Source: a virus
Reading direction: 5' to 3' (one strand)
DNA length: 6,469 nt
Virus record (IMG/VR): IMGVR_UViG_3300020030_000027
Coordinates: 1-6,469 of that record
The position numbers and the translations under genes were made by a program. This document shows positions 1-6,469 of this stretch, piece after piece. Under the pieces are notes generated by a model, which did no database searches, was not told where the DNA came from, and worked only from the letters and a program-made list of their open reading frames with translations. The stretch's first letter is position 1. The number at the start of each line of letters is the position of its first letter.

Positions 1-121
1 GCAGGAATGAATCCAGATTTAGCATACGGCAATGTTAATGGCACTGCTCCCGCTAGTCCTGGTATGACCTCCGGAGAACCCTCTCTACCTGTTGATTATT
101 CTGCTATTGCTGGAAAGCAAA
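1..121. repeat. Terminal direct repeat, copy 1 (identical to 6349-6469); over-read of a circular genome
   Basis: Base-by-base comparison shows 1-121 (gcaggaatgaatccag...ggaaagcaaa) is identical to 6349-6469. The repeat lies inside a continuous reading frame (VP2), as expected for a circular molecule written out linearly with overlap. Confidence 0.97.
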
Positions 122-900
122 CTATTGGTTCGGCTGTCTCCCAAGCCTTGTCGAATGAGCAAGCCCAAGCAAATATAGCTCTGACGCAGGCCCAAGAGAA
201 TAAAATGAACCAAGAAGCCGGAAAGATTTCGGAAGAAGCAAATGGTGTTCGTATTGATAATCTGACTAGAGGTGAATCCAATACTCTTGAAATTCAGCTT
301 AAACAAGGAGTTATTAAACTTAACGATTCAGTAAAACAACTGAACGAACAGAATAAGAAGAATTTACAACAACAGTTGGAGAATCTTAAATTGGAAAGTA
401 ATAATCTTGCTGAACAATGGCAGGTTATTCGTGAAACTTGGAGTAATCTAAGAGTAGATAAAGCTCTGAAAATGATTGATTTAAAATTTCGTGAAAAACA
501 GAATGTTTTTATTTTGAAAAAAATATCTAGCGAAACTAATCTCAATTATGTACAAGCTTCGTCTATGACAAAACGCCTTATGTTGGATATGGCTCTAGGA
601 AAGACGCAAATGAATCTTATGACCCAACAGGCAATTACTGAAACTCAAAAGCGTGTAAATATGCGTACTGAAGATTGGTATAACCGTGGTAAGATTCGAA
701 GTGTTTATTTACAAAATGGACAACTATCTTTTGATTTTAGTCAGTCTATTAAATGGGATGATACAATGAAATCTATTGATTGGTGCGAGAAATTCTGCCG
801 TTCAATATTCATGCTTACGCAGTCATTCCAAGGCGCTGCCTCTGGTTCTATACCAAAGGCAGGCGGCAATCCGTTTTACCCGCAAGGTGTGAATTGGTAA
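1..900 (+). CDS. VP2: DNA pilot / minor capsid protein VP2 (phiX174 H-like); 3' part of a junction-spanning gene whose true start is 6142
   Basis: The frame is open from base 1. The listed ORF 7-900 begins at an internal Met, and the same frame is open upstream from 6142 to 6348 on the circle. The motif NSPAAYRARLAAAGMNPDLAY spans the junction and matches my recollection of the conserved N-proximal motif of gokushovirus/alpavirus VP2 proteins. The middle part (about 259-450) is Q/N/L/E-rich and heptad-like, as expected for a coiled-coil pilot-tube protein. Third codon positions are T-rich. Stop TAA is at 898-900. Confidence 0.85.
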   Translation, partial: AGMNPDLAYGNVNGTAPASPGMTSGEPSLPVDYSAIAGKQTIGSAVSQALSNEQAQANIALTQAQENKMNQEAGKISEEANGVRIDNLTRGESNTLEIQLKQGVIKLNDSVKQLNEQNKKNLQQQLENLKLESNNLAEQWQVIRETWSNLRVDKALKMIDLKFREKQNVFILKKISSETNLNYVQASSMTKRLMLDMALGKTQMNLMTQQAITETQKRVNMRTEDWYNRGKIRSVYLQNGQLSFDFSQSIKWDDTMKSIDWCEKFCRSIFMLTQSFQGAASGSIPKAGGNPFYPQGVNW

Positions 901-1073: not shown

Positions 1074-2426
1074 ATGTATAATTTGTATTGTGAACACCCT
1101 GTTATTATTCGACATCCTCGTTTGAAGGATTTGTTACCTGTTTTTGGTTCGTATCGTACTCCTAACGGTTTGTATGATTTAACTCCATCCCAGTGTCATA
1201 CGTGGAAATATCGTTTTCCAGAGTGGTTATTTTCCGCTCGCAAGTGTGGCGTTACTCTTGATAATATTGATGATTTCCAAATCATTAATCTAAGAACTGG
1301 TGAGACTTCTCCTATGTTTATGGCTGTTCCATGTGGGAAATGTATTCTTTGCCGTGATAAGAAAAAGAGAGAATGGTCTTTTCGTGCCACATGTGAGAAT
1401 GTATTCTCTACTTCAATCCCTATTTTTGTGACCCTTACTTACAACAATAAACACCTCCCTAAACATGGTGTATTTAAAGAAGAGATACAACTCTTCATGA
1501 AACGTCTCCGCATTCGTTTAGATCGTCTAGGTTATAAACATCAGATAAGATATTTTTTCTGTTCTGAATATGGTTCTAAGTCTGGTAGGCCGCATTATCA
1601 TGCTATTTTTTGGAACTTTCCTCGTGATGGTGCTTTGGTTAACATTTGGAATGTCGTTAAGATGATTGAGAAAGCCTGGTCTTATAATGGTGAGCCCCTC
1701 GGATTTGCTTATGCCGTTTCTTGCGATAAAGGTGCTATTGGTTATGTGATGAAGTATATGTCTAAAATACCCCGCATTCCTGATAATATGAATAATGTGT
1801 TTTTTCTCTCATCTCGCAAAGATGGCGGAATAGGCGCTGCCTATGCTCGTCGTTTGATGCCATTTTATCGTGCTAATCCTCAATGTCTAGATATAACTGT
1901 TTGTGACCCTTATAGCGGTATGTCTACTACTGTTACTTTACCGGAATATTTTAAGCGTTTGTATTATCCTGCTAATTCTAGTGTATTATCTAAAGAAATC
2001 CGTGATGCGTTTAAAAAATTGTGTGATTGTATATCTGATAGGTATACTATTCATTGTGCCGGAAATTATATTGATAAGTTACGCTTCTCTGATATTGAAA
2101 AGAAAGTGCTTCGCAAGTATTCGTTTCTAAGTCCTAAGGTTTGTAAATATCCTATCGGTAAAAAGATGGATTATTATACTCAAATTCCTTGGCAGGCTCT
2201 CGATGATATATATGTTGCTAATGAGTGCGAAATAGCTTCCCTATGTCGGTTTCTTATGCTTGAAAGTATTGATACGACTTGGTTTGAAATTCGTGATGAA
2301 ATTTTACAAAAGCGGCAACGTGCTATAGATGTGCGTTTTTCCAATATGCAACCTATCAATATAAATGATGTTAAATACAGGAAATTAAATGCTCTAAAAC
2401 TTGCAGAATTAAGGGAAAAGGTATAA
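1074..2426 (+). CDS. VP4: Replication initiation protein VP4 (HUH rolling-circle endonuclease, Microviridae type)
   Basis: ORF of 450 aa. RCR motif I is FVTLTY (aa 118-123, nt 1425-1442). Motif II (HUH) is HYHAIF (aa 174-179, nt 1593-1610). Motif III is YVMKYMSK with the catalytic Tyr (aa 224-231, nt 1743-1766). The Cys cluster CGKCILCR (aa 87-94, nt 1332-1355) and the N-terminal C-x-x-P-V-I-I context are typical of microvirus VP4. Codon usage is T3-rich. Confidence 0.93.
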   Translation: MYNLYCEHPVIIRHPRLKDLLPVFGSYRTPNGLYDLTPSQCHTWKYRFPEWLFSARKCGVTLDNIDDFQIINLRTGETSPMFMAVPCGKCILCRDKKKREWSFRATCENVFSTSIPIFVTLTYNNKHLPKHGVFKEEIQLFMKRLRIRLDRLGYKHQIRYFFCSEYGSKSGRPHYHAIFWNFPRDGALVNIWNVVKMIEKAWSYNGEPLGFAYAVSCDKGAIGYVMKYMSKIPRIPDNMNNVFFLSSRKDGGIGAAYARRLMPFYRANPQCLDITVCDPYSGMSTTVTLPEYFKRLYYPANSSVLSKEIRDAFKKLCDCISDRYTIHCAGNYIDKLRFSDIEKKVLRKYSFLSPKVCKYPIGKKMDYYTQIPWQALDDIYVANECEIASLCRFLMLESIDTTWFEIRDEILQKRQRAIDVRFSNMQPININDVKYRKLNALKLAELREKV

Positions 2427-2454: not shown

Positions 2455-2628
2455 ATGAGTAAGCCTATATGTTATAATTGGATTTTACGTATTGTTGACC
2501 AAAATGGTGAACGGTATGAGAGTAGAATGGATTATACGTTAGCTAATATGCGTAAATGCTTGAATTTTTGGCGCTCTAAGCCTGGTGTTTTGAGTGTCTC
2601 TGCTTATAAACAATTTACTAATCTTTAA
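2455..2628 (+). CDS. Hypothetical small protein, 57 aa (below the ORF-track cutoff)
   Basis: Hand translation from ATG 2455 to TAA 2626-2628 gives MSKPICYNWILRIVDQNGERYESRMDYTLANMRKCLNFWRSKPGVLSVSAYKQFTNL. About half of the third positions are T, as in VP1 and VP4. It fills an otherwise empty gap after VP4 in a compact genome and has a net basic charge. I recognise no family. Confidence 0.45.
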   Translation: MSKPICYNWILRIVDQNGERYESRMDYTLANMRKCLNFWRSKPGVLSVSAYKQFTNL

Positions 2629-2644
2629 TGTTTCACGTGGAACA

Positions 2645-2878
2645 ATGGAAAAAAGAGTAATTTTAACTACATTACGTATTATGCGTAGGGCAACCTTAGA
2701 GCCTATTGTAGATATAAAACTAGGTGTGTTTGAACGTCCTTCACAGTCTGAAAAGATTCGTGCGTCTCTTGTGGAATCCAATCCGGATTTTATATTTTTG
2801 GCTAAACATGAAGAGTTATGTCCTAATTTATTTCCAGATGATGAAGATAACGCCCAATCAATGCATAGAAATAGTTAA
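2645..2878 (+). CDS. Hypothetical small protein, 77 aa (ATG start inside the listed 2594-2878 ORF)
   Basis: The listed 2594 start is GTG and would overlap the 57-aa ORF. The first ATG, at 2645, gives MEKRVILTTLRIMRRATLEP... with a basic N-terminal half and an acidic C-terminal tail (PDDEDNAQ). Third positions are T/A-rich. I recognise no family. Confidence 0.5.
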   Translation: MEKRVILTTLRIMRRATLEPIVDIKLGVFERPSQSEKIRASLVESNPDFIFLAKHEELCPNLFPDDEDNAQSMHRNS

Positions 2879-3038
2879 ACTTATTTCTACTTTCGTAATA
2901 GGTATTATTACTACTTTGTTTGTACAAAGTTGTACTTTGTCTCTTAGCGTTGCTAAGAATAATAATAACGCTACACAGAAAACCGAACAGACTTCGACTT
3001 CTAGTGTAGATAGTACTCATGTAAATTTATATCGTTAA
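2838..3038 (+). CDS. Small membrane / lipoprotein-like protein, 66 aa (candidate lysis or exclusion factor)
   Basis: ATG ATG at 2838-2843 lies in the frame of the listed 2724-3038 ORF, whose 2724 start is GTG. An alternative ATG is at 2808. The protein is MMKITPNQCIEIVKLISTFVIGIITTLFVQSCTLSLSVAKNNNNATQKTEQTSTSSVDSTHVNLYR. It has one hydrophobic helix, LISTFVIGIITTLFV (nt 2880-2924), followed by a lipobox-like VQSC (Cys at 2931-2933) and a polar N/T/S-rich tail. Third positions are T-rich. It is the only open frame across 2879-3038. Stop TAA at 3036-3038 is 2 nt before the VP1 ATG. Confidence 0.5.
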   Translation: MMKITPNQCIEIVKLISTFVIGIITTLFVQSCTLSLSVAKNNNNATQKTEQTSTSSVDSTHVNLYR

Positions 3039-3040
3039 TT

Positions 3041-5476
3041 ATGGCTAATGGTGCTTTTGATGCTACTTTAGATGTTAACAATGAGATTAAGGTTAACAAT
3101 TTTGATTGGTCTCACGCCAATAATCTGACTACTCAAATTGGTCGTGTTACTCCGGTGTTTTGTGAACTTGTTCCGGCTCATGGTTCGGTAAGAATCAATC
3201 CCCGATTCGGTTTGCAATTTATGCCTATGGTATTTCCTATTCAGACTCGTCTGCGTGCTCGTATGATGTTTTTTAAATATCCTCTCCGTGCCCTATGGGA
3301 TGGCTATCGAGATTTTGTAGGTAATTTCCGTGAAGATTTGGAAGAGCCCTATCTAGATTTGAATACATCGACCCGTCTTGATGCTATGGCAAAAACTGGT
3401 TCGCTTGGTGACTACTTAGGACTTCCTACTACTTTATTTGGTAAGTTTGGTACTACTATTTCGGTTAATACTACCGGACATATTTGGGGATTGAAAGGTA
3501 ACCAATTTAACGGTTCTGACCAAATGCAGTATGTTCCTAGTATTCCTATTGATTCAGTTTCTAATATACTTGCATTTTTAGGCTTAAGTCCTTCTCCTTC
3601 TGATACTCCCTCCGACCGTATTAGTTGGACTGTTCCTTCTCCGGGGTCTGCTTCTGCTAGTAATACCGTCAATATCGTACCCTATATTTCTGCTTCTGGT
3701 ATTGCTGGCTCTGATTCTATCACTGCTAATTCTCGTTTGGAATTTGATATACCTTGGAAACGCATTTCTAATCCTACTTCTGCCGATTTGACTGCGTTTA
3801 GCGAAGGCGCTGTTTCAGGATTTGCGAAGAAATCTAATTCTTATACACTATTGAATTTTATTCAAGCTACGTTCAATGCTGTTGATGGCGATAGATTTGT
3901 TAAGTTATTGTTCTCATTTCCGGAATCAATGTACGGTTCTACTACTGACGATTTTGAGTTTTTTTCATTCTTAAATTTATATTCTGCATTTGGTAGACGT
4001 ATTTCAGGAAATACTACTGCTTGGGGATTGCAAAATACTTCTCTTGGTCGTGCTTTTTTAGATATTCCTGATGGCGAGAAAACTACGGGTTTTCTTCTTC
4101 GAATATCTGATTTTGATTTAGCTGGTTCTGGAGCACAAGCTCATTATTATCTTACTGCTGATAAACCTGTTGATTTGACGCTTAATTCTTCGCCTTATTA
4201 TAATTCCGGTTCGTCAAATAAGGATAAACAGATTAAAATTTCTGCTTATTCATTCCGAGCTTATGAAGGTATTTATAACGCTTATATTCGTGATAATCGT
4301 AACAATCCTTATTATGTTAATGGACAAGTCCAGTATAACAAATGGATTCCTACTTATGATGGTGGTGCAGACCAGAATATTTATGAATTGCGTTACGCTA
4401 ACTGGGAAAAAGACTTCCTTACTACTGCTGTTCAATCTCCGCAACAAGGTACTGCACCTCTTGTAGGTATTACTACTTATACGGAAACGGTTGAAACAAC
4501 GTCTGACGATGGTACACCTGTTACTAGGGAATTATCTCGTATTGCTCTGGTAGATGAAGATGGTAAGAAATACCAGGTTTCATTTGATTCTGATTCCGAG
4601 GGTTTGAAAGGTGTATCTTACGTTGAACTTGATAATGAAGTTAAACTTCGTCAGCCTCGTAACCTGATAGATGTTGTAACGTCTGGTATTTCAATCAATG
4701 ATTTGCGTAATGTAAACGCATACCAAAAGTTTTTGGAGCTTAACATGCGCAAAGGGTATTCTTATCGTGATATTATTGAGGGTCGTTTTAACGTTAAAGT
4801 CCGCTATGATGAATTGTTGATGCCCGAATTTTTCGGCGGTTTCTCTCGTGATATTGAGATGCATTCTATCAGCCAGACCGTAGACCAAGACCTCAATGGC
4901 TCGCAGACTTATGCAAAGGCGTTAGGTTCTCAATCAGGTATTGCAGGTGTTCGTGGTGATTCTGGAAGAGCTCTTGAATGTTTCTGCGATGAAGAGAGTA
5001 TAGTTATGGGTATTTTGATTGTCACACCGTTGCCAGTGTATACACAATTGTTGCCTAAACACTTCACTTATCGAGGTTTGTTAGACCATTATCAGCCGGA
5101 GTTCAATCATATAGGATTCCAACCTATTTTGTACAAAGAAGTTTGTCCGTTACAAGCTTATAGCGACGGTCCTGACACTTTGTCCGATGTATTTGGCTAT
5201 AATAGACCGTGGTATGAGTATGTGCAAAAGTATGATCAGGCGCACGGATTATTCCGTACAAACTTGTCAAATTTCTTGATGCATCGTGTCTTTAATCATA
5301 AACCACAGCTTGCTCAATCATTTTTAGTTATTGACCCGGCTCAAGTAACCGACGTGTTTGCAGTGACGAAAGCGGATGACGGTACAGAGCTTACAGATAA
5401 GATATATGGTCAAATCTGGTTCGACTGTACGGCGAAATTGCCGATTAGCCGTGTCGCTATACCTCGGCTTGATTAG
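3041..5476 (+). CDS. VP1: Major capsid protein VP1 (phiX174 F-like jelly-roll), 811 aa
   Basis: The conserved Microviridae F/VP1 landmarks appear in the correct order. These are the N-terminal FDWSH...TTQIGRVTPV...ELVP; GDYLGLP (aa 123-129); SFRAYEGIYNAYIRDNR (aa 404-420); ISINDLRNVNAYQKFLELNMRKGYSYRDIIEGRFNV and PEFFGG (aa 550-600); and the C-terminal block WYEY...HGLF. The T3 codon bias is very strong. ATG is at 3041 and TAG at 5474-5476. Confidence 0.95.
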   Translation: MANGAFDATLDVNNEIKVNNFDWSHANNLTTQIGRVTPVFCELVPAHGSVRINPRFGLQFMPMVFPIQTRLRARMMFFKYPLRALWDGYRDFVGNFREDLEEPYLDLNTSTRLDAMAKTGSLGDYLGLPTTLFGKFGTTISVNTTGHIWGLKGNQFNGSDQMQYVPSIPIDSVSNILAFLGLSPSPSDTPSDRISWTVPSPGSASASNTVNIVPYISASGIAGSDSITANSRLEFDIPWKRISNPTSADLTAFSEGAVSGFAKKSNSYTLLNFIQATFNAVDGDRFVKLLFSFPESMYGSTTDDFEFFSFLNLYSAFGRRISGNTTAWGLQNTSLGRAFLDIPDGEKTTGFLLRISDFDLAGSGAQAHYYLTADKPVDLTLNSSPYYNSGSSNKDKQIKISAYSFRAYEGIYNAYIRDNRNNPYYVNGQVQYNKWIPTYDGGADQNIYELRYANWEKDFLTTAVQSPQQGTAPLVGITTYTETVETTSDDGTPVTRELSRIALVDEDGKKYQVSFDSDSEGLKGVSYVELDNEVKLRQPRNLIDVVTSGISINDLRNVNAYQKFLELNMRKGYSYRDIIEGRFNVKVRYDELLMPEFFGGFSRDIEMHSISQTVDQDLNGSQTYAKALGSQSGIAGVRGDSGRALECFCDEESIVMGILIVTPLPVYTQLLPKHFTYRGLLDHYQPEFNHIGFQPILYKEVCPLQAYSDGPDTLSDVFGYNRPWYEYVQKYDQAHGLFRTNLSNFLMHRVFNHKPQLAQSFLVIDPAQVTDVFAVTKADDGTELTDKIYGQIWFDCTAKLPISRVAIPRLD

Positions 5477-5567
5477 AAAATAGTTTTTCTTTTGTTTTTC
5501 CGACAATGCCTAAACTGCGCACTTTAGCCGGATTGCGTCAAGGGTTATTGTAGTAAAATATGTTAAA

Positions 5568-5593
5568 TGCGCGCGTGCGTTTCGCGCGTGCGT
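5568..5593. repeat. GC-rich tandem direct repeat (2 x 13 nt) that can also fold as a CGCGCG hairpin
   Basis: TGCGCGCGTGCGT (5568-5580) and TTCGCGCGTGCGT (5581-5593) differ at one position. CGCGCG 5570-5575 can pair with CGCGCG 5583-5588 across a 7-nt loop. The repeat is flanked by the inverted TTAAAT (5563-5568) and ATTTAA (5594-5599). A third copy of the octamer GCGTGCGT lies at 5721-5728. Confidence 0.8.
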
Positions 5594-5619
5594 ATTTAAT
5601 AGATTTTAGTACAATGTTC

Positions 5620-5651
5620 ATTGACCTTTCCGGATAAAGTACCTATCTTTG
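5620..5651 (+). promoter_or_regulatory. Candidate Bacteroidetes-type promoter (-7 TAnnTTTG with an upstream TTG)
   Basis: TATCTTTG at 5644-5651 matches the Bacteroides -7 consensus TAnnTTTG. ATTG at 5620-5623 lies 20 nt upstream, a partial match to the -33 TTTG. The position is suitable to drive ORF125-VP2-VP4. This is a motif match only. Confidence 0.3.
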
Positions 5652-5669
5652 CATTATCGTGAAAATTAA

Positions 5670-5722
5670 AGGGAAAGTATTTTCCCTCTGCGTGAAACGC
5701 AAATTAATAGCAACTCTGTTGC
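5670..5722 (+). other. Cluster of three closely spaced stem-loops in the long intergenic region
   Basis: Three hairpins: AGGGAAA-GTAT-TTTCCCT (5670-5687, 7 bp); TGCGT-GAA-ACGCA (5689-5701, 5 bp); GCAAC-TCT-GTTGC (5710-5722, 5 bp). GTGAAA recurs at 5659-5664, 5692-5697 and 5752-5757. Confidence 0.4.
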
Positions 5723-5764
5723 GTGCGTTAGGGATAGAGGCGAGTATCGGAGTGAAACGTAGAT

Positions 5765-6142
5765 ATGTTTGAGCCGGATAGCCCGCTCGAACGCTCAAAT
5801 TATAAATCTTTAAATTTTTTAATTATGGCACTTAGAAAATTGATTCCGCAAATTAATTCGGTTTCTTGCAAATTATCTTCAAAAGATATGCTTGTTACAA
5901 AACCGGATTTGGCGATTACGCCTAGTCAAGTCCAAGAATTAACGAATAAAGGTATTTCGGTGAGTTTGCCGAATGCAAAACAATTTTTGGACGGACATGC
6001 TATAGAAACGGCTAAGAGTTGGGACGTTGACCCTATATTTAAACGTGATGCAAATATTTGTACTATGTTTGAACTCGAAAGAGATTCTCAAGGCAAGATT
6101 ATTCGTGCCCATAAAGTTGACCGCAAAAAATTTGGTGATTAA
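5765..6142 (+). CDS. Hypothetical protein, 125 aa (105 aa if started at ATG 5825), translationally coupled to VP2; possible scaffolding-type protein
   Basis: ORF from ATG 5765 to TAA 6140-6142. The stop overlaps the VP2 start as TAATG (6140-6144). The alternative start 5825 sits in TTAATTATGGC (5819-5829), the same 11-mer that surrounds the VP1 start (3035-3045), so 5825 may be the real start (MALRKLIPQ...). I recognise no family with confidence. Confidence 0.6.
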   Translation: MFEPDSPLERSNYKSLNFLIMALRKLIPQINSVSCKLSSKDMLVTKPDLAITPSQVQELTNKGISVSLPNAKQFLDGHAIETAKSWDVDPIFKRDANICTMFELERDSQGKIIRAHKVDRKKFGD

Positions 6143-6469
6143 TGTACGGTTTAATTGGTGCGGCACTTGGCGCAATTTCCCAAAATTTTAATATCTCCGA
6201 ATCCATTGCAGCAAACAAGCAAGAACAACAGTCAAATCGTGATTACAATTTGAATCTTGCAAAGTTGCAAAATCAATGGAATCGTGAACAATGGGAAAGA
6301 GAAGCCCAATATAATTCACCTGCTGCGTACCGTGCCCGTCTTGCAGCGGCAGGAATGAATCCAGATTTAGCATACGGCAATGTTAATGGCACTGCTCCCG
6401 CTAGTCCTGGTATGACCTCCGGAGAACCCTCTCTACCTGTTGATTATTCTGCTATTGCTGGAAAGCAAA
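6142..6469 (+). CDS. VP2: DNA pilot / minor capsid protein VP2, 5' part (continues through the circle junction into 1-900)
   Basis: Hand translation from ATG 6142 gives MYGLIGAALGAISQNFNISESIAANKQEQQSNRDYNLNLAKLQNQWNREQWEREAQYNSPAAYRARLAAAGMNPDLAYGN..., with no stop up to the window end. The ORF track omits it because no stop occurs inside the window. Bases 6349-6469 duplicate 1-121 in the same frame. The full gene is 6142-6348 plus 1-900, which is 1107 nt and 368 aa. The N-terminus is hydrophobic and Gly/Ala-rich. Confidence 0.85.
   Translation, partial: MYGLIGAALGAISQNFNISESIAANKQEQQSNRDYNLNLAKLQNQWNREQWEREAQYNSPAAYRARLAAAGMNPDLAYGNVNGTAPASPGMTSGEPSLPVDYSAIAGKQ
6349..6469. repeat. Terminal direct repeat, copy 2 (identical to 1-121)
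   Basis: Exact 121-nt identity with the window start. See the copy 1 entry. Confidence 0.97.

Follow-up and report, generated by a model that had tools for sequence, protein, structure and literature searches.

A conserved gene for a predicted small lipoprotein upstream of VP1 in Bacteroides microviruses, a candidate for a lysis or superinfection-exclusion function

In the mammalian gut, the ~6-kb microviruses that infect Bacteroides ('Alpavirinae'-like) rank with the most common phages. In phiX174, gene E lies embedded within gene D; its product, the protein E, inhibits MraY, acts through a transmembrane helix and tolerates replacement of its C-terminal part. The colicin lysis proteins are tiny non-enzymatic lipoproteins, and for the bacteriocin release proteins (BRPs) quasi-lysis and destabilisation of the envelope are the joint effect of the lipopeptide and the stable signal peptide. 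Rz1, an o-spanin, is Pro-rich and disulfide-linked. Phage T5 makes Llp, an outer-membrane lipoprotein on the periplasmic side which acts as an allosteric block of FhuA; it folds into a domain of 61 residues that contains a Cys11-Cys58 disulfide (PMC9586334). For the exit of microviruses from their hosts, the protein E of phiX174 is the only characterised factor, and for some other microviruses an M15 peptidase has been proposed to act in lysis by Roux et al. (PMC3394797). The literature that we searched describes no lipoprotein in 'Alpavirinae' or other microviruses, and no lipobox-bearing single-gene lysis protein. Here we analysed the IMG/VR virus record IMGVR_UViG_3300020030_000027, a complete microvirus genome of 6469 nt with every gene on the plus strand (hereafter the window), and in it a small gene that ends directly upstream of the gene for the major capsid protein VP1 and encodes a predicted lipoprotein. 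A lysis or superinfection-exclusion function of this lipoprotein is put forward as a candidate and not as a finding. The gene and the predicted parts of its product are as follows.

2841-3038, plus strand: small lipoprotein gene, 65 codons and TAA, with an alternative ATG at 2838 (from the open reading frame, synteny, dN/dS and the codon-position pattern)
2841-2930, plus strand: predicted signal peptide, residues 1-30 (from hydropathy, PROSITE rule PS51257 and a helix modelled by AlphaFold2)
2922-2933, plus strand: lipobox V-Q-S-C, starting at V28 (PS51257 core match)
2931-2933, plus strand: codon TGT of Cys31, the predicted lipidation and cleavage site
2931-3035, plus strand: predicted mature lipopeptide of 35 residues, CTLSLSVAKNNNNATQKTEQTSTSSVDSTHVNLYR

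The frame is open on the plus strand over 2724-3038 and contains ATG codons at 2838 and 2841. Read from 2838, it gives the 66-residue translation MMKITPNQCIEIVKLISTFVIGIITTLFVQSCTLSLSVAKNNNNATQKTEQTSTSSVDSTHVNLYR. The stop codon TAA at 3036-3038 leaves 2 nt before the VP1 ATG at 3041, exactly as described in the original prediction, which was made from the window's sequence alone, and this spacing is kept across nearly all relatives. The start had been placed at 2838, where an ATG does open the frame, but the likeliest start is 2841 (MKIT...), because several relatives open exactly at MK[ILV]T and the in-frame upstream extension is not conserved. Two other features claimed for this open reading frame (ORF) were borne out: its 5' end overlaps the 3' end of a 77-aa ORF in another frame, and its third codon positions share the T bias of the major genes (0.51, vs 0.52 in VP1 and 0.53 in VP4). 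The claim that it is the only open frame over 2879-3038 is correct for the plus strand but fails when both strands are considered, as an antisense ORF of 65 aa (2823-3020) is also open in the window. The antisense ORF was rejected as a gene; in relatives its start is lost or its frame is interrupted by stops, and the variable sites do not fit its frame.

The ORF is almost certainly a genuine gene. In a set of 37 related loci from a VP1-based scan of IMG/VR, each locus that reaches upstream of VP1 carries an ORF of 64-81 aa with the same architecture, and a family profile finds a syntenic homologue in 41 related loci, so that the small syntenic ORF anticipated in related genomes does exist. At 90% identity the family falls into 1376 clusters, and at 50% into 104; it is present in 57-72 GenBank microvirus records. 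Its members are all unannotated or called 'hypothetical protein', and they lie on ~6-kb microvirus contigs or in Bacteroides prophages.

Selection on the gene was estimated pairwise against the window by the Nei-Gojobori method, as nonsynonymous (dN) and synonymous (dS) divergence and their ratio, omega. Between the window and L004, dS is 1.03 and dN is 0.034, giving an omega of 0.03, while VP1 of the same pair has an omega of 0.22. The pairs with L002, L003 and L006 are similar, and the dN/dS of the lipoprotein gene is 0.02-0.04 at a dS of 0.35-1.1. Purifying selection, which had been suggested as a check on the ORF, is therefore strong (omega ~0.03 at dS ~1). Within the close clade, the variable alignment columns fall at codon positions 1, 2 and 3 in the numbers 13, 4 and 43, a pattern which fits the lipoprotein frame, whereas the antisense frame would require the opposite one. 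The tail of the lipoprotein is nearly invariant, and in the same pairs the lipoprotein dN of 0.03 compares with a VP1 dN of 0.24-0.31. The locus L009 (3592-3789) is 95% identical in nucleotides to the window gene (2841-3038) with a dS of 0.16, whereas the adjoining VP1 is 64% identical with a dS of 1.67. This difference points to a recombination breakpoint at or near the junction of the lipoprotein gene and VP1, and these genomes would then be mosaics of modules.

The product has the layout of a lipoprotein precursor. The n-region of the signal peptide, MKITPNQCIEIVK, contains K2 and K13, and the uncharged h-region, LISTFVIGIITTLFV, is the most hydrophobic 15-mer (Kyte-Doolittle 2.42). The core of PS51257 is matched by GIITTLFVQSC, with the Cys at residue 31. 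A K-containing N-region, a 15-residue hydrophobic helix and a VQSC lipobox, all named in the original prediction, are thus present and are kept in the family, and the polar, N/T/S-rich mature part, expected at about 35 residues, has 35. Its reading of the locus as a small gene whose product begins with a hydrophobic segment, followed by a lipobox and a short polar mature part, agrees with the conservation of both the frame and the Cys. The lipobox Cys occurs in 97 of the 97 representatives that cover its column, and the remaining 6 of the 103 small representatives are fragments that have a gap there. A small residue (S, A or G) occupies position -1 in 98% of 75 curated members. At residue 8 of the n-region (codon 2862-2864), the window has a Cys (TGC) where almost all close relatives have a Trp (QW-IEIVK); this second Cys, 5' of the lipobox, is specific to the window genome.

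Across the family, the region before the lipobox Cys has a median length of 29 residues and consists of an amphipathic, K/E-containing n-region and then ~15 uncharged residues. It diverges between clades yet stays hydrophobic, and its mean pairwise identity is 0.27, compared with 0.40 after the Cys. The higher conservation after the Cys suggests a cleavable targeting signal and a functional exported part, rather than a functional helix with a dispensable tail. The column frequencies of the 75 members reveal three motifs in the mature part, C-T-x-S-[LM]-S-[VI]-x-K-N-N, Q-x-x-E-Q and (V)-D-S-T-x-[IV]. The mature part is rich in S, N, T, K and Q, with 1.6% Pro and 0.4% Cys after Cys+1 and no second conserved Cys, and it matches no domain. 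In searches of Pfam, PHROG, PADLOC and PDB, the window protein and 52 family members had no significant match apart from that of a few members to DUF6486, by their N-terminal helix.

Lipoprotein processing is quite likely, and we infer export and lipidation from the rule-based prediction together with the conservation. In Bacteroidota, the signal for surface export of lipoproteins is a polar or Lys residue followed by at least two acidic residues within positions +2 to +6 (PMC5080379). No D or E is found at +2 to +6 in 75 of the 75 members, and the window protein reads T-L-S-L-S at these positions. From the missing export signal, we infer that the lipopeptide faces the periplasm. In an AlphaFold2 (AF2) model from a 19-sequence alignment, the protein forms a single long helix which is confident only over the signal peptide, where the predicted local distance difference test score (pLDDT) is 84-95. 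The pLDDT falls below 50 over residues 46-65, and the model suggests that the mature tail is probably disordered on its own.

By analogy, the colicin lysis proteins and BRPs (Lysis_col; ColE1 Kil, pCloDF13 BRP) appear to be the closest match in a possible working principle. Like them, the family consists of very small predicted lipoproteins, with a precursor of a few dozen residues and a mature lipopeptide of ~30-35 residues that would be polar, rich in S, T, Q and N, non-enzymatic, and co-transcribed beside the exiting cargo. Unlike them, it has an unusually long signal peptide (median 29) with a conserved amphipathic n-region, and it belongs to Bacteroides and not to Enterobacteriaceae, and to a virus and not to a plasmid. 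Lysis_col was not among the Pfam matches at E <= 0.1 for the window protein and the 52 family members.

The original prediction also drew analogies to phiX174 E and to the Rz1-type o-spanins, and the comparison disfavours both. The lipoprotein resembles E as a small protein with an N-terminal hydrophobic helix from a microvirus without muralytic enzyme, and it would serve at the same point of the viral cycle. In contrast to E, the helix is the more variable part of the family (identity of 0.27, vs 0.40 for the tail), the exported tail and the lipobox Cys are conserved, and the gene is not embedded but stands alone save for an overlap of 38 nt. Like Rz1, the family would be a phage lipoprotein of the outer membrane, small and with a mature part of few residues; it differs in its low Pro content of 1.6%, in the lack of an additional conserved Cys, and in genomes that hold no i-spanin, holin or endolysin as a partner. 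A peptidase or endolysin is absent from 41 of the 41 lipoprotein-bearing loci.

The place between VP4 and VP1 where the gene lies (hereafter the slot) holds different genes in related microviruses. It was surveyed by local profile scans in 21 records (H48-H68), the best-ranked ones in a list of evenly spaced GenBank VP1 matches, with the following contents.

Lipoprotein family: 5 of 21 genomes, one of which (L055) has a helix-only relative
Second small lipoprotein, apparently unrelated: 2 of 21 genomes (L051, L143)
Peptidase_M15_3: 8 of 21 genomes (Pfam E of 1e-13 to 1e-20), some with membrane ORFs of 35-52 aa alongside
Neither gene: 5 of 21 genomes, two of them partial records
Not assigned: 1 of 21 genomes, the record being truncated

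A lipoprotein of either family and the peptidase occur together in 0 of the 21 sampled genomes. Across 139 loci, 41 have the lipoprotein, 85 have the peptidase and none has both. The peptidase of the slot (L050, L052, L054, L056, L058, L141, L142 and L145) is 40-47% identical to the annotated endolysins of the cultured Bacteroides double-stranded DNA (dsDNA) phages B40-8, BF3-TP1 and BS-TP3. Because of this identity, the M15 peptidase is a credible lysis enzyme, which would have been acquired from phages of the same hosts. Of two peptidase queries against IMG/VR, one gave no match and the other gave mostly dsDNA phage contigs of 30-60 kb, which is informative on the kinship with endolysins only. 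In a neighbour-joining tree of VP1, the lipoprotein is found in three deep lineages and the peptidase genomes form essentially one clade; the simplest history would be that an ancestral lipoprotein was displaced once or twice. In two distant genomes, L041 (bajarodmic virus 670) and L042 (Dulem virus 213), VP1 is ~23% identical to that of the window in its C-terminal part, and the lipoprotein is 38-40% identical over its full length.

Several small ORFs accompany these genes. In L052 (bajarodmic virus 1009), whose M15 peptidase cassette occupies 5229-5792, and in L056, a holin-like membrane ORF of 35-52 aa lies 5' of the peptidase gene; in L050, the peptidase bears its own N-terminal hydrophobic segment; and in L142 and L145, a membrane ORF of 29 aa (MKQKLLSVLFKTLSYFITALAGALTASAI) lies 3' of the peptidase gene. 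A tiny amphipathic ORF of 27-37 aa with a basic C-terminus lies directly 5' of VP1 in several peptidase genomes and in genomes with neither gene (L048 6404-6517; L052 5861-5950; L054 6143-6247; L056 5653-5739; L141 6009-6095; L144 1479-1562). Examples are MKKLIKILEVVAYFVNCFLNFFKPSSNPNHTKIK and MNIFKKILSWLQFIVDFIKFLTNYKRN; they match no family and may be a further membrane-active component. The second lipoprotein family, MKKLTVPLVLMTLLFLSAC-STSHRCESLHRATLQFSDTIVYKSNNFISNEKYIFSD (which reads MKKLTVPLVLMTLLFLSAC-STSHRCES...), is unannotated and overlaps the end of VP4 and the start of VP1. It is located at 5893-6060 in L051 (OM869564.1) and at 5875-6063 in L143 (OM869565.1), in both across the origin of the record, and these two genomes carry neither the first lipoprotein family nor the peptidase. 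In the lineage with the distant VP1, the lipoprotein gene and VP1 are separated by a further ORF, which is acidic, 80-88 aa long and contains a short hydrophobic patch (…WDLIASLIFACHEMIE…) (L041 5730-5996 and L042 5538-5780, both wrapping around the origin; L044 1090-1356). L044 has the acidic ORF without a lipoprotein gene and without a recognisable VP4, and may be defective or misassembled.

As to the host, a scan with VP1 limited to one genome per species gave three Bacteroides records. One of them holds a prophage (L039, ~5100-11560), integrated in a 3.7-Mb contig (NZ_BAABXI010000001.1) of Bacteroides sp. f07, with an intact copy of the lipoprotein gene. The prophage is flanked by a gyrA/TPR gene pair and by a universal-stress-protein gene, and within it the genes run in the order small ORFs, lipoprotein, VP1, 105-aa ORF, VP2 and VP4. 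Since a member is integrated in a Bacteroides genome, the lineage is temperate and infects Bacteroides. At this site, the host TPR gene is co-directional and reads into the string of small ORFs, lipoprotein and VP1, and no integrase was seen in the prophage.

For the role of the lipoprotein, we favour that of the lysis or release effector of these microviruses; it may quite possibly be right, and we hold it tentatively. The reading is based on four points: the lipoprotein is the sole conserved membrane- or envelope-targeted product of a genome without a muralytic enzyme, its gene is under the constraint of a core gene (omega ~0.03), the slot is otherwise filled by an endolysin cassette which never co-occurs with it, and its tail remains constant while the capsid surface changes, which suggests a conserved host target rather than a variable receptor. 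In this mechanism, the Sec pathway would export the pre-lipoprotein via its 30-residue signal peptide, and Lgt and signal peptidase II would act at the invariant Cys31. The product would be a lipid-anchored, intrinsically disordered peptide of ~35 residues, rich in S, N, T and Q. Without the Bacteroidota surface-export signal, the lipopeptide would stay on the periplasmic side of the envelope, and would act there on a conserved envelope component, leading to lysis and release of the progeny. A contribution may also come from the signal peptide that remains in the inner membrane. The lipoprotein would work in the manner of the colicin lysis proteins and not in that of phiX174 E. The spread of the family over three deep VP1 lineages is a further indication of a lysis role. 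In its most specific form, the proposal is a lipoprotein-type single-gene lysis, in which the disordered lipopeptide, with or without the released 30-residue signal peptide, would kill from the periplasmic side via a conserved envelope machine of Bacteroidota. Such a mechanism is possible but doubtful. Lipoprotein sorting, outer-membrane biogenesis, and a step of peptidoglycan synthesis or turnover would be the candidate machines.

Several observations weigh against a lysis role. The exclusivity with the peptidase is largely phylogenetic and may reflect one or two displacement events. Neither gene is found in 5 of the 21 sampled genomes, so the slot does not always hold a recognisable lysis gene, and it may simply be a hotspot of accessory genes. 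The strict PROSITE rule is passed by only 55 of the 104 representatives; those that fail mostly have Q, E, D or another residue at the lipobox position -2, or are fragments. Recombination of modules inflates the apparent conservation for some pairs (L009), while pairs with saturated dS are unaffected. A disordered peptide of 35 residues offers no clue to its target, and the literature searched documents no lipoprotein-type single-gene lysis protein in single-stranded DNA (ssDNA) phages.

The alternative that fares best is a superinfection-exclusion or receptor-masking lipoprotein of the T5 Llp/Cor type, and we regard it as somewhat unlikely. Such a protein would bind a receptor, e.g. a SusC/TonB-dependent transporter, from inside, and would block further adsorption and shield the released progeny from debris and outer-membrane vesicles. 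Llp itself acts from the periplasmic side, and the lipoprotein is likewise small and predicted to face the periplasm. Like a Llp/Cor gene, its gene adjoins that of the receptor-binding protein, here the receptor-contacting VP1. Immunity-type functions would also pay off in a temperate lineage with Bacteroides prophages. A single faint PHROG match, phrog_8545 'Sie-like' (E = 0.077), points the same way, but it is not significant and is reproduced by 0 of the 52 members at E < 0.01. PADLOC gave no match, no significant similarity to Llp or Cor was found by sequence or profile, and a sequence search of the PDB gave no match at E <= 1. Whereas Llp is a folded domain held by a disulfide, the lipoprotein has a tail of 35 residues with a single Cys, which is predicted to be disordered. 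The tail is near-invariant (dN 0.03) despite divergent surface insertions in VP1 (dN 0.24-0.33), and the family spans VP1 lineages of 23% identity. This is not the receptor-specific co-variation with the capsid that would be expected of Llp/Cor-type proteins. In addition, replacement by an endolysin cassette in the same slot would not be expected of an exclusion gene.

An accessory factor that modifies the envelope, through interference with host defence, lipoprotein sorting, or vesicle or capsule biology, and raises the burst size or the fitness of the lysogen, seems improbable to us. The cargo of the slot is indeed varied in the manner of a hotspot, with two lipoprotein families, a helix-only peptide, the peptidase with or without membrane ORFs, amphipathic ORFs, or nothing, and the five genomes that lack both the lipoprotein and the peptidase suit a dispensable gene. 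An omega of ~0.03 would, however, be unusual for such a gene in a genome of 6.4 kb. The lipoprotein gene is present in every member of the window's clade and persists across three deep lineages, and no similarity to defence or anti-defence families was found in Pfam, PHROG or PADLOC.

The last alternative concerns the N-terminal helix, and brings in the sole database footprint of the family, DUF6486 (PF20096), on the helix of some relatives. DUF6486 is an uncharacterised family of ~31 residues. Its 31-position model covers only the N-terminal helix of the long-form members P0242, P0269 and P0296 (E of 1e-7 to 4e-12); the lipobox and the tail lie outside of it, and it has no functional annotation. 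The window protein gives no match to DUF6486, even with the signal peptide alone at E up to 1. In L055 (Dulem virus 262, PP511385.1), a stand-alone membrane peptide of 30 aa, MSKKNTWRTILEVIGAVISAVLGALGASSL, is encoded at 6290-6382, in the position of the lipoprotein gene, and matches DUF6486 at 36.9 bits, above the gathering score of 22.7 bits. This ORF has no Cys and no remnant of the tail, and is followed by a hairpin, AAAGGGAGCG...CGCTCCCTTT, before VP1; L055 has neither the peptidase nor a full lipoprotein. A protein search with the short form of L055 gave no matches. The helix-only ORF shows that the signal-peptide part can exist as a gene of its own in the slot, and it supports a role for the signal peptide in the proposed lysis. 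For the BRP of pCloDF13, the released signal peptide is itself toxic. That the helix is the functional unit, holin-like or E-like and perhaps signal-anchored and uncleaved, with the Cys and the tail as a lineage-specific addition, agrees with this toxicity, with the DUF6486 matches, with the tail-less ORF of L055 and with the one long confident helix of the AF2 model, but it is improbable: the long-form tail is more conserved than the helix (0.40 vs 0.27), the invariant Cys with a small residue at -1 is not required by a plain membrane anchor, the window protein fails DUF6486, and the Ser residues of the tail appear, from a high raw proportion of nonsynonymous differences (pN) at conserved residues, to be kept across switches between TCN and AGY codons.

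If the lipoprotein does act in lysis as proposed, this would be a mode of phage lysis undescribed for any ssDNA or single-stranded RNA phage. The lipopeptide would also amount to a natural 'protein antibiotic', and whatever it acts on would be a new target in a dominant gut phylum and a new weak point of the Bacteroidota envelope. If the lipoprotein acts in exclusion instead, it would give microviruses their first described exclusion system. The question is directly testable in genetically tractable Bacteroides. Our analysis provides a defined candidate of 65 codons and a family alignment with targets for mutation, namely Cys31, K-N-N, E-Q, D-S-T, and the signal peptide versus the tail. It also provides a natural set for comparison, the sister genomes in which the same slot is taken by an endolysin cassette, by a helix-only peptide or by a second lipoprotein.

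The other features of the window are as follows.

7-900, plus strand: VP2-like ORF
1074-2426, plus strand: Rep/VP4 replication initiator (phrog_942, 1e-55; Pfam REP_ORF2-G2P)
2455-2628, plus strand: small ORF
2645-2878, plus strand: conserved 77-aa ORF, function unassigned, nearest upstream neighbour of the lipoprotein gene in the same gene string
2841-2878, plus strand: overlap of the start of the lipoprotein gene and the 3' end of the 77-aa ORF, in different frames
3041-5476, plus strand: VP1 major capsid gene, unusually large at 811 aa (Pfam Phage_F, 5.7e-43; phrog_514, 1.6e-86)
5765-6142, plus strand: 125-aa ORF

The 77-aa ORF carries the motif RPSQSEK[IL]RASL..NP..FLAK.E, and its homologues lie 5' of the lipoprotein gene in those of the loci L001-L037 that include upstream DNA. 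It had no match in Pfam, PHROG or PADLOC. Its overlap with the lipoprotein gene varies from 4 to 38 nt depending on the relative, with 38 nt in the window; in relatives it is reduced to 4-17 nt (ATGA in L014), as is typical of coupled genes. A promoter of its own was sought for the lipoprotein gene, and only one Bacteroides-type -7 box (TATTTTTG, 2793) was found, without a -33 element and at about the frequency expected by chance; this gives no evidence for a separate lysogenic expression of the gene. The full Bacteroides promoter consensus TTTG-N19-TAnnTTTG has a single match in the window, at 1021-1055, which is ~20 nt 5' of the VP4 start codon (1074).

Hydrophobic ORFs embedded in the manner of gene E were considered in VP1 (4263-4466) and in VP4 (1903-2130 and 1570-1665). 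They have stops or lost starts in relatives and were rejected as by-products of the T-rich third codon positions. Apart from the lipoprotein gene, the window genome has no conserved ORF with a membrane-targeted product.

Downstream of VP1, a non-coding gap of ~290 nt (5477-5764) contains a long GC-rich hairpin around AAATGCGCGCGTGCGTTTCGCGCGTGCGTATTT. An Rfam scan of the window gave no family, the gap included; the gap could be an origin, a packaging or a terminator element. Nowhere else in the window does the DNA match GenBank microviruses at the level of megablast; in the gap, the identity to bajarodmic, Tortoise and Rattus microviruses is 75-84%. Its conservation is mosaic, as L020 is 78% identical to the window in the gap, compared with 63% in VP1.

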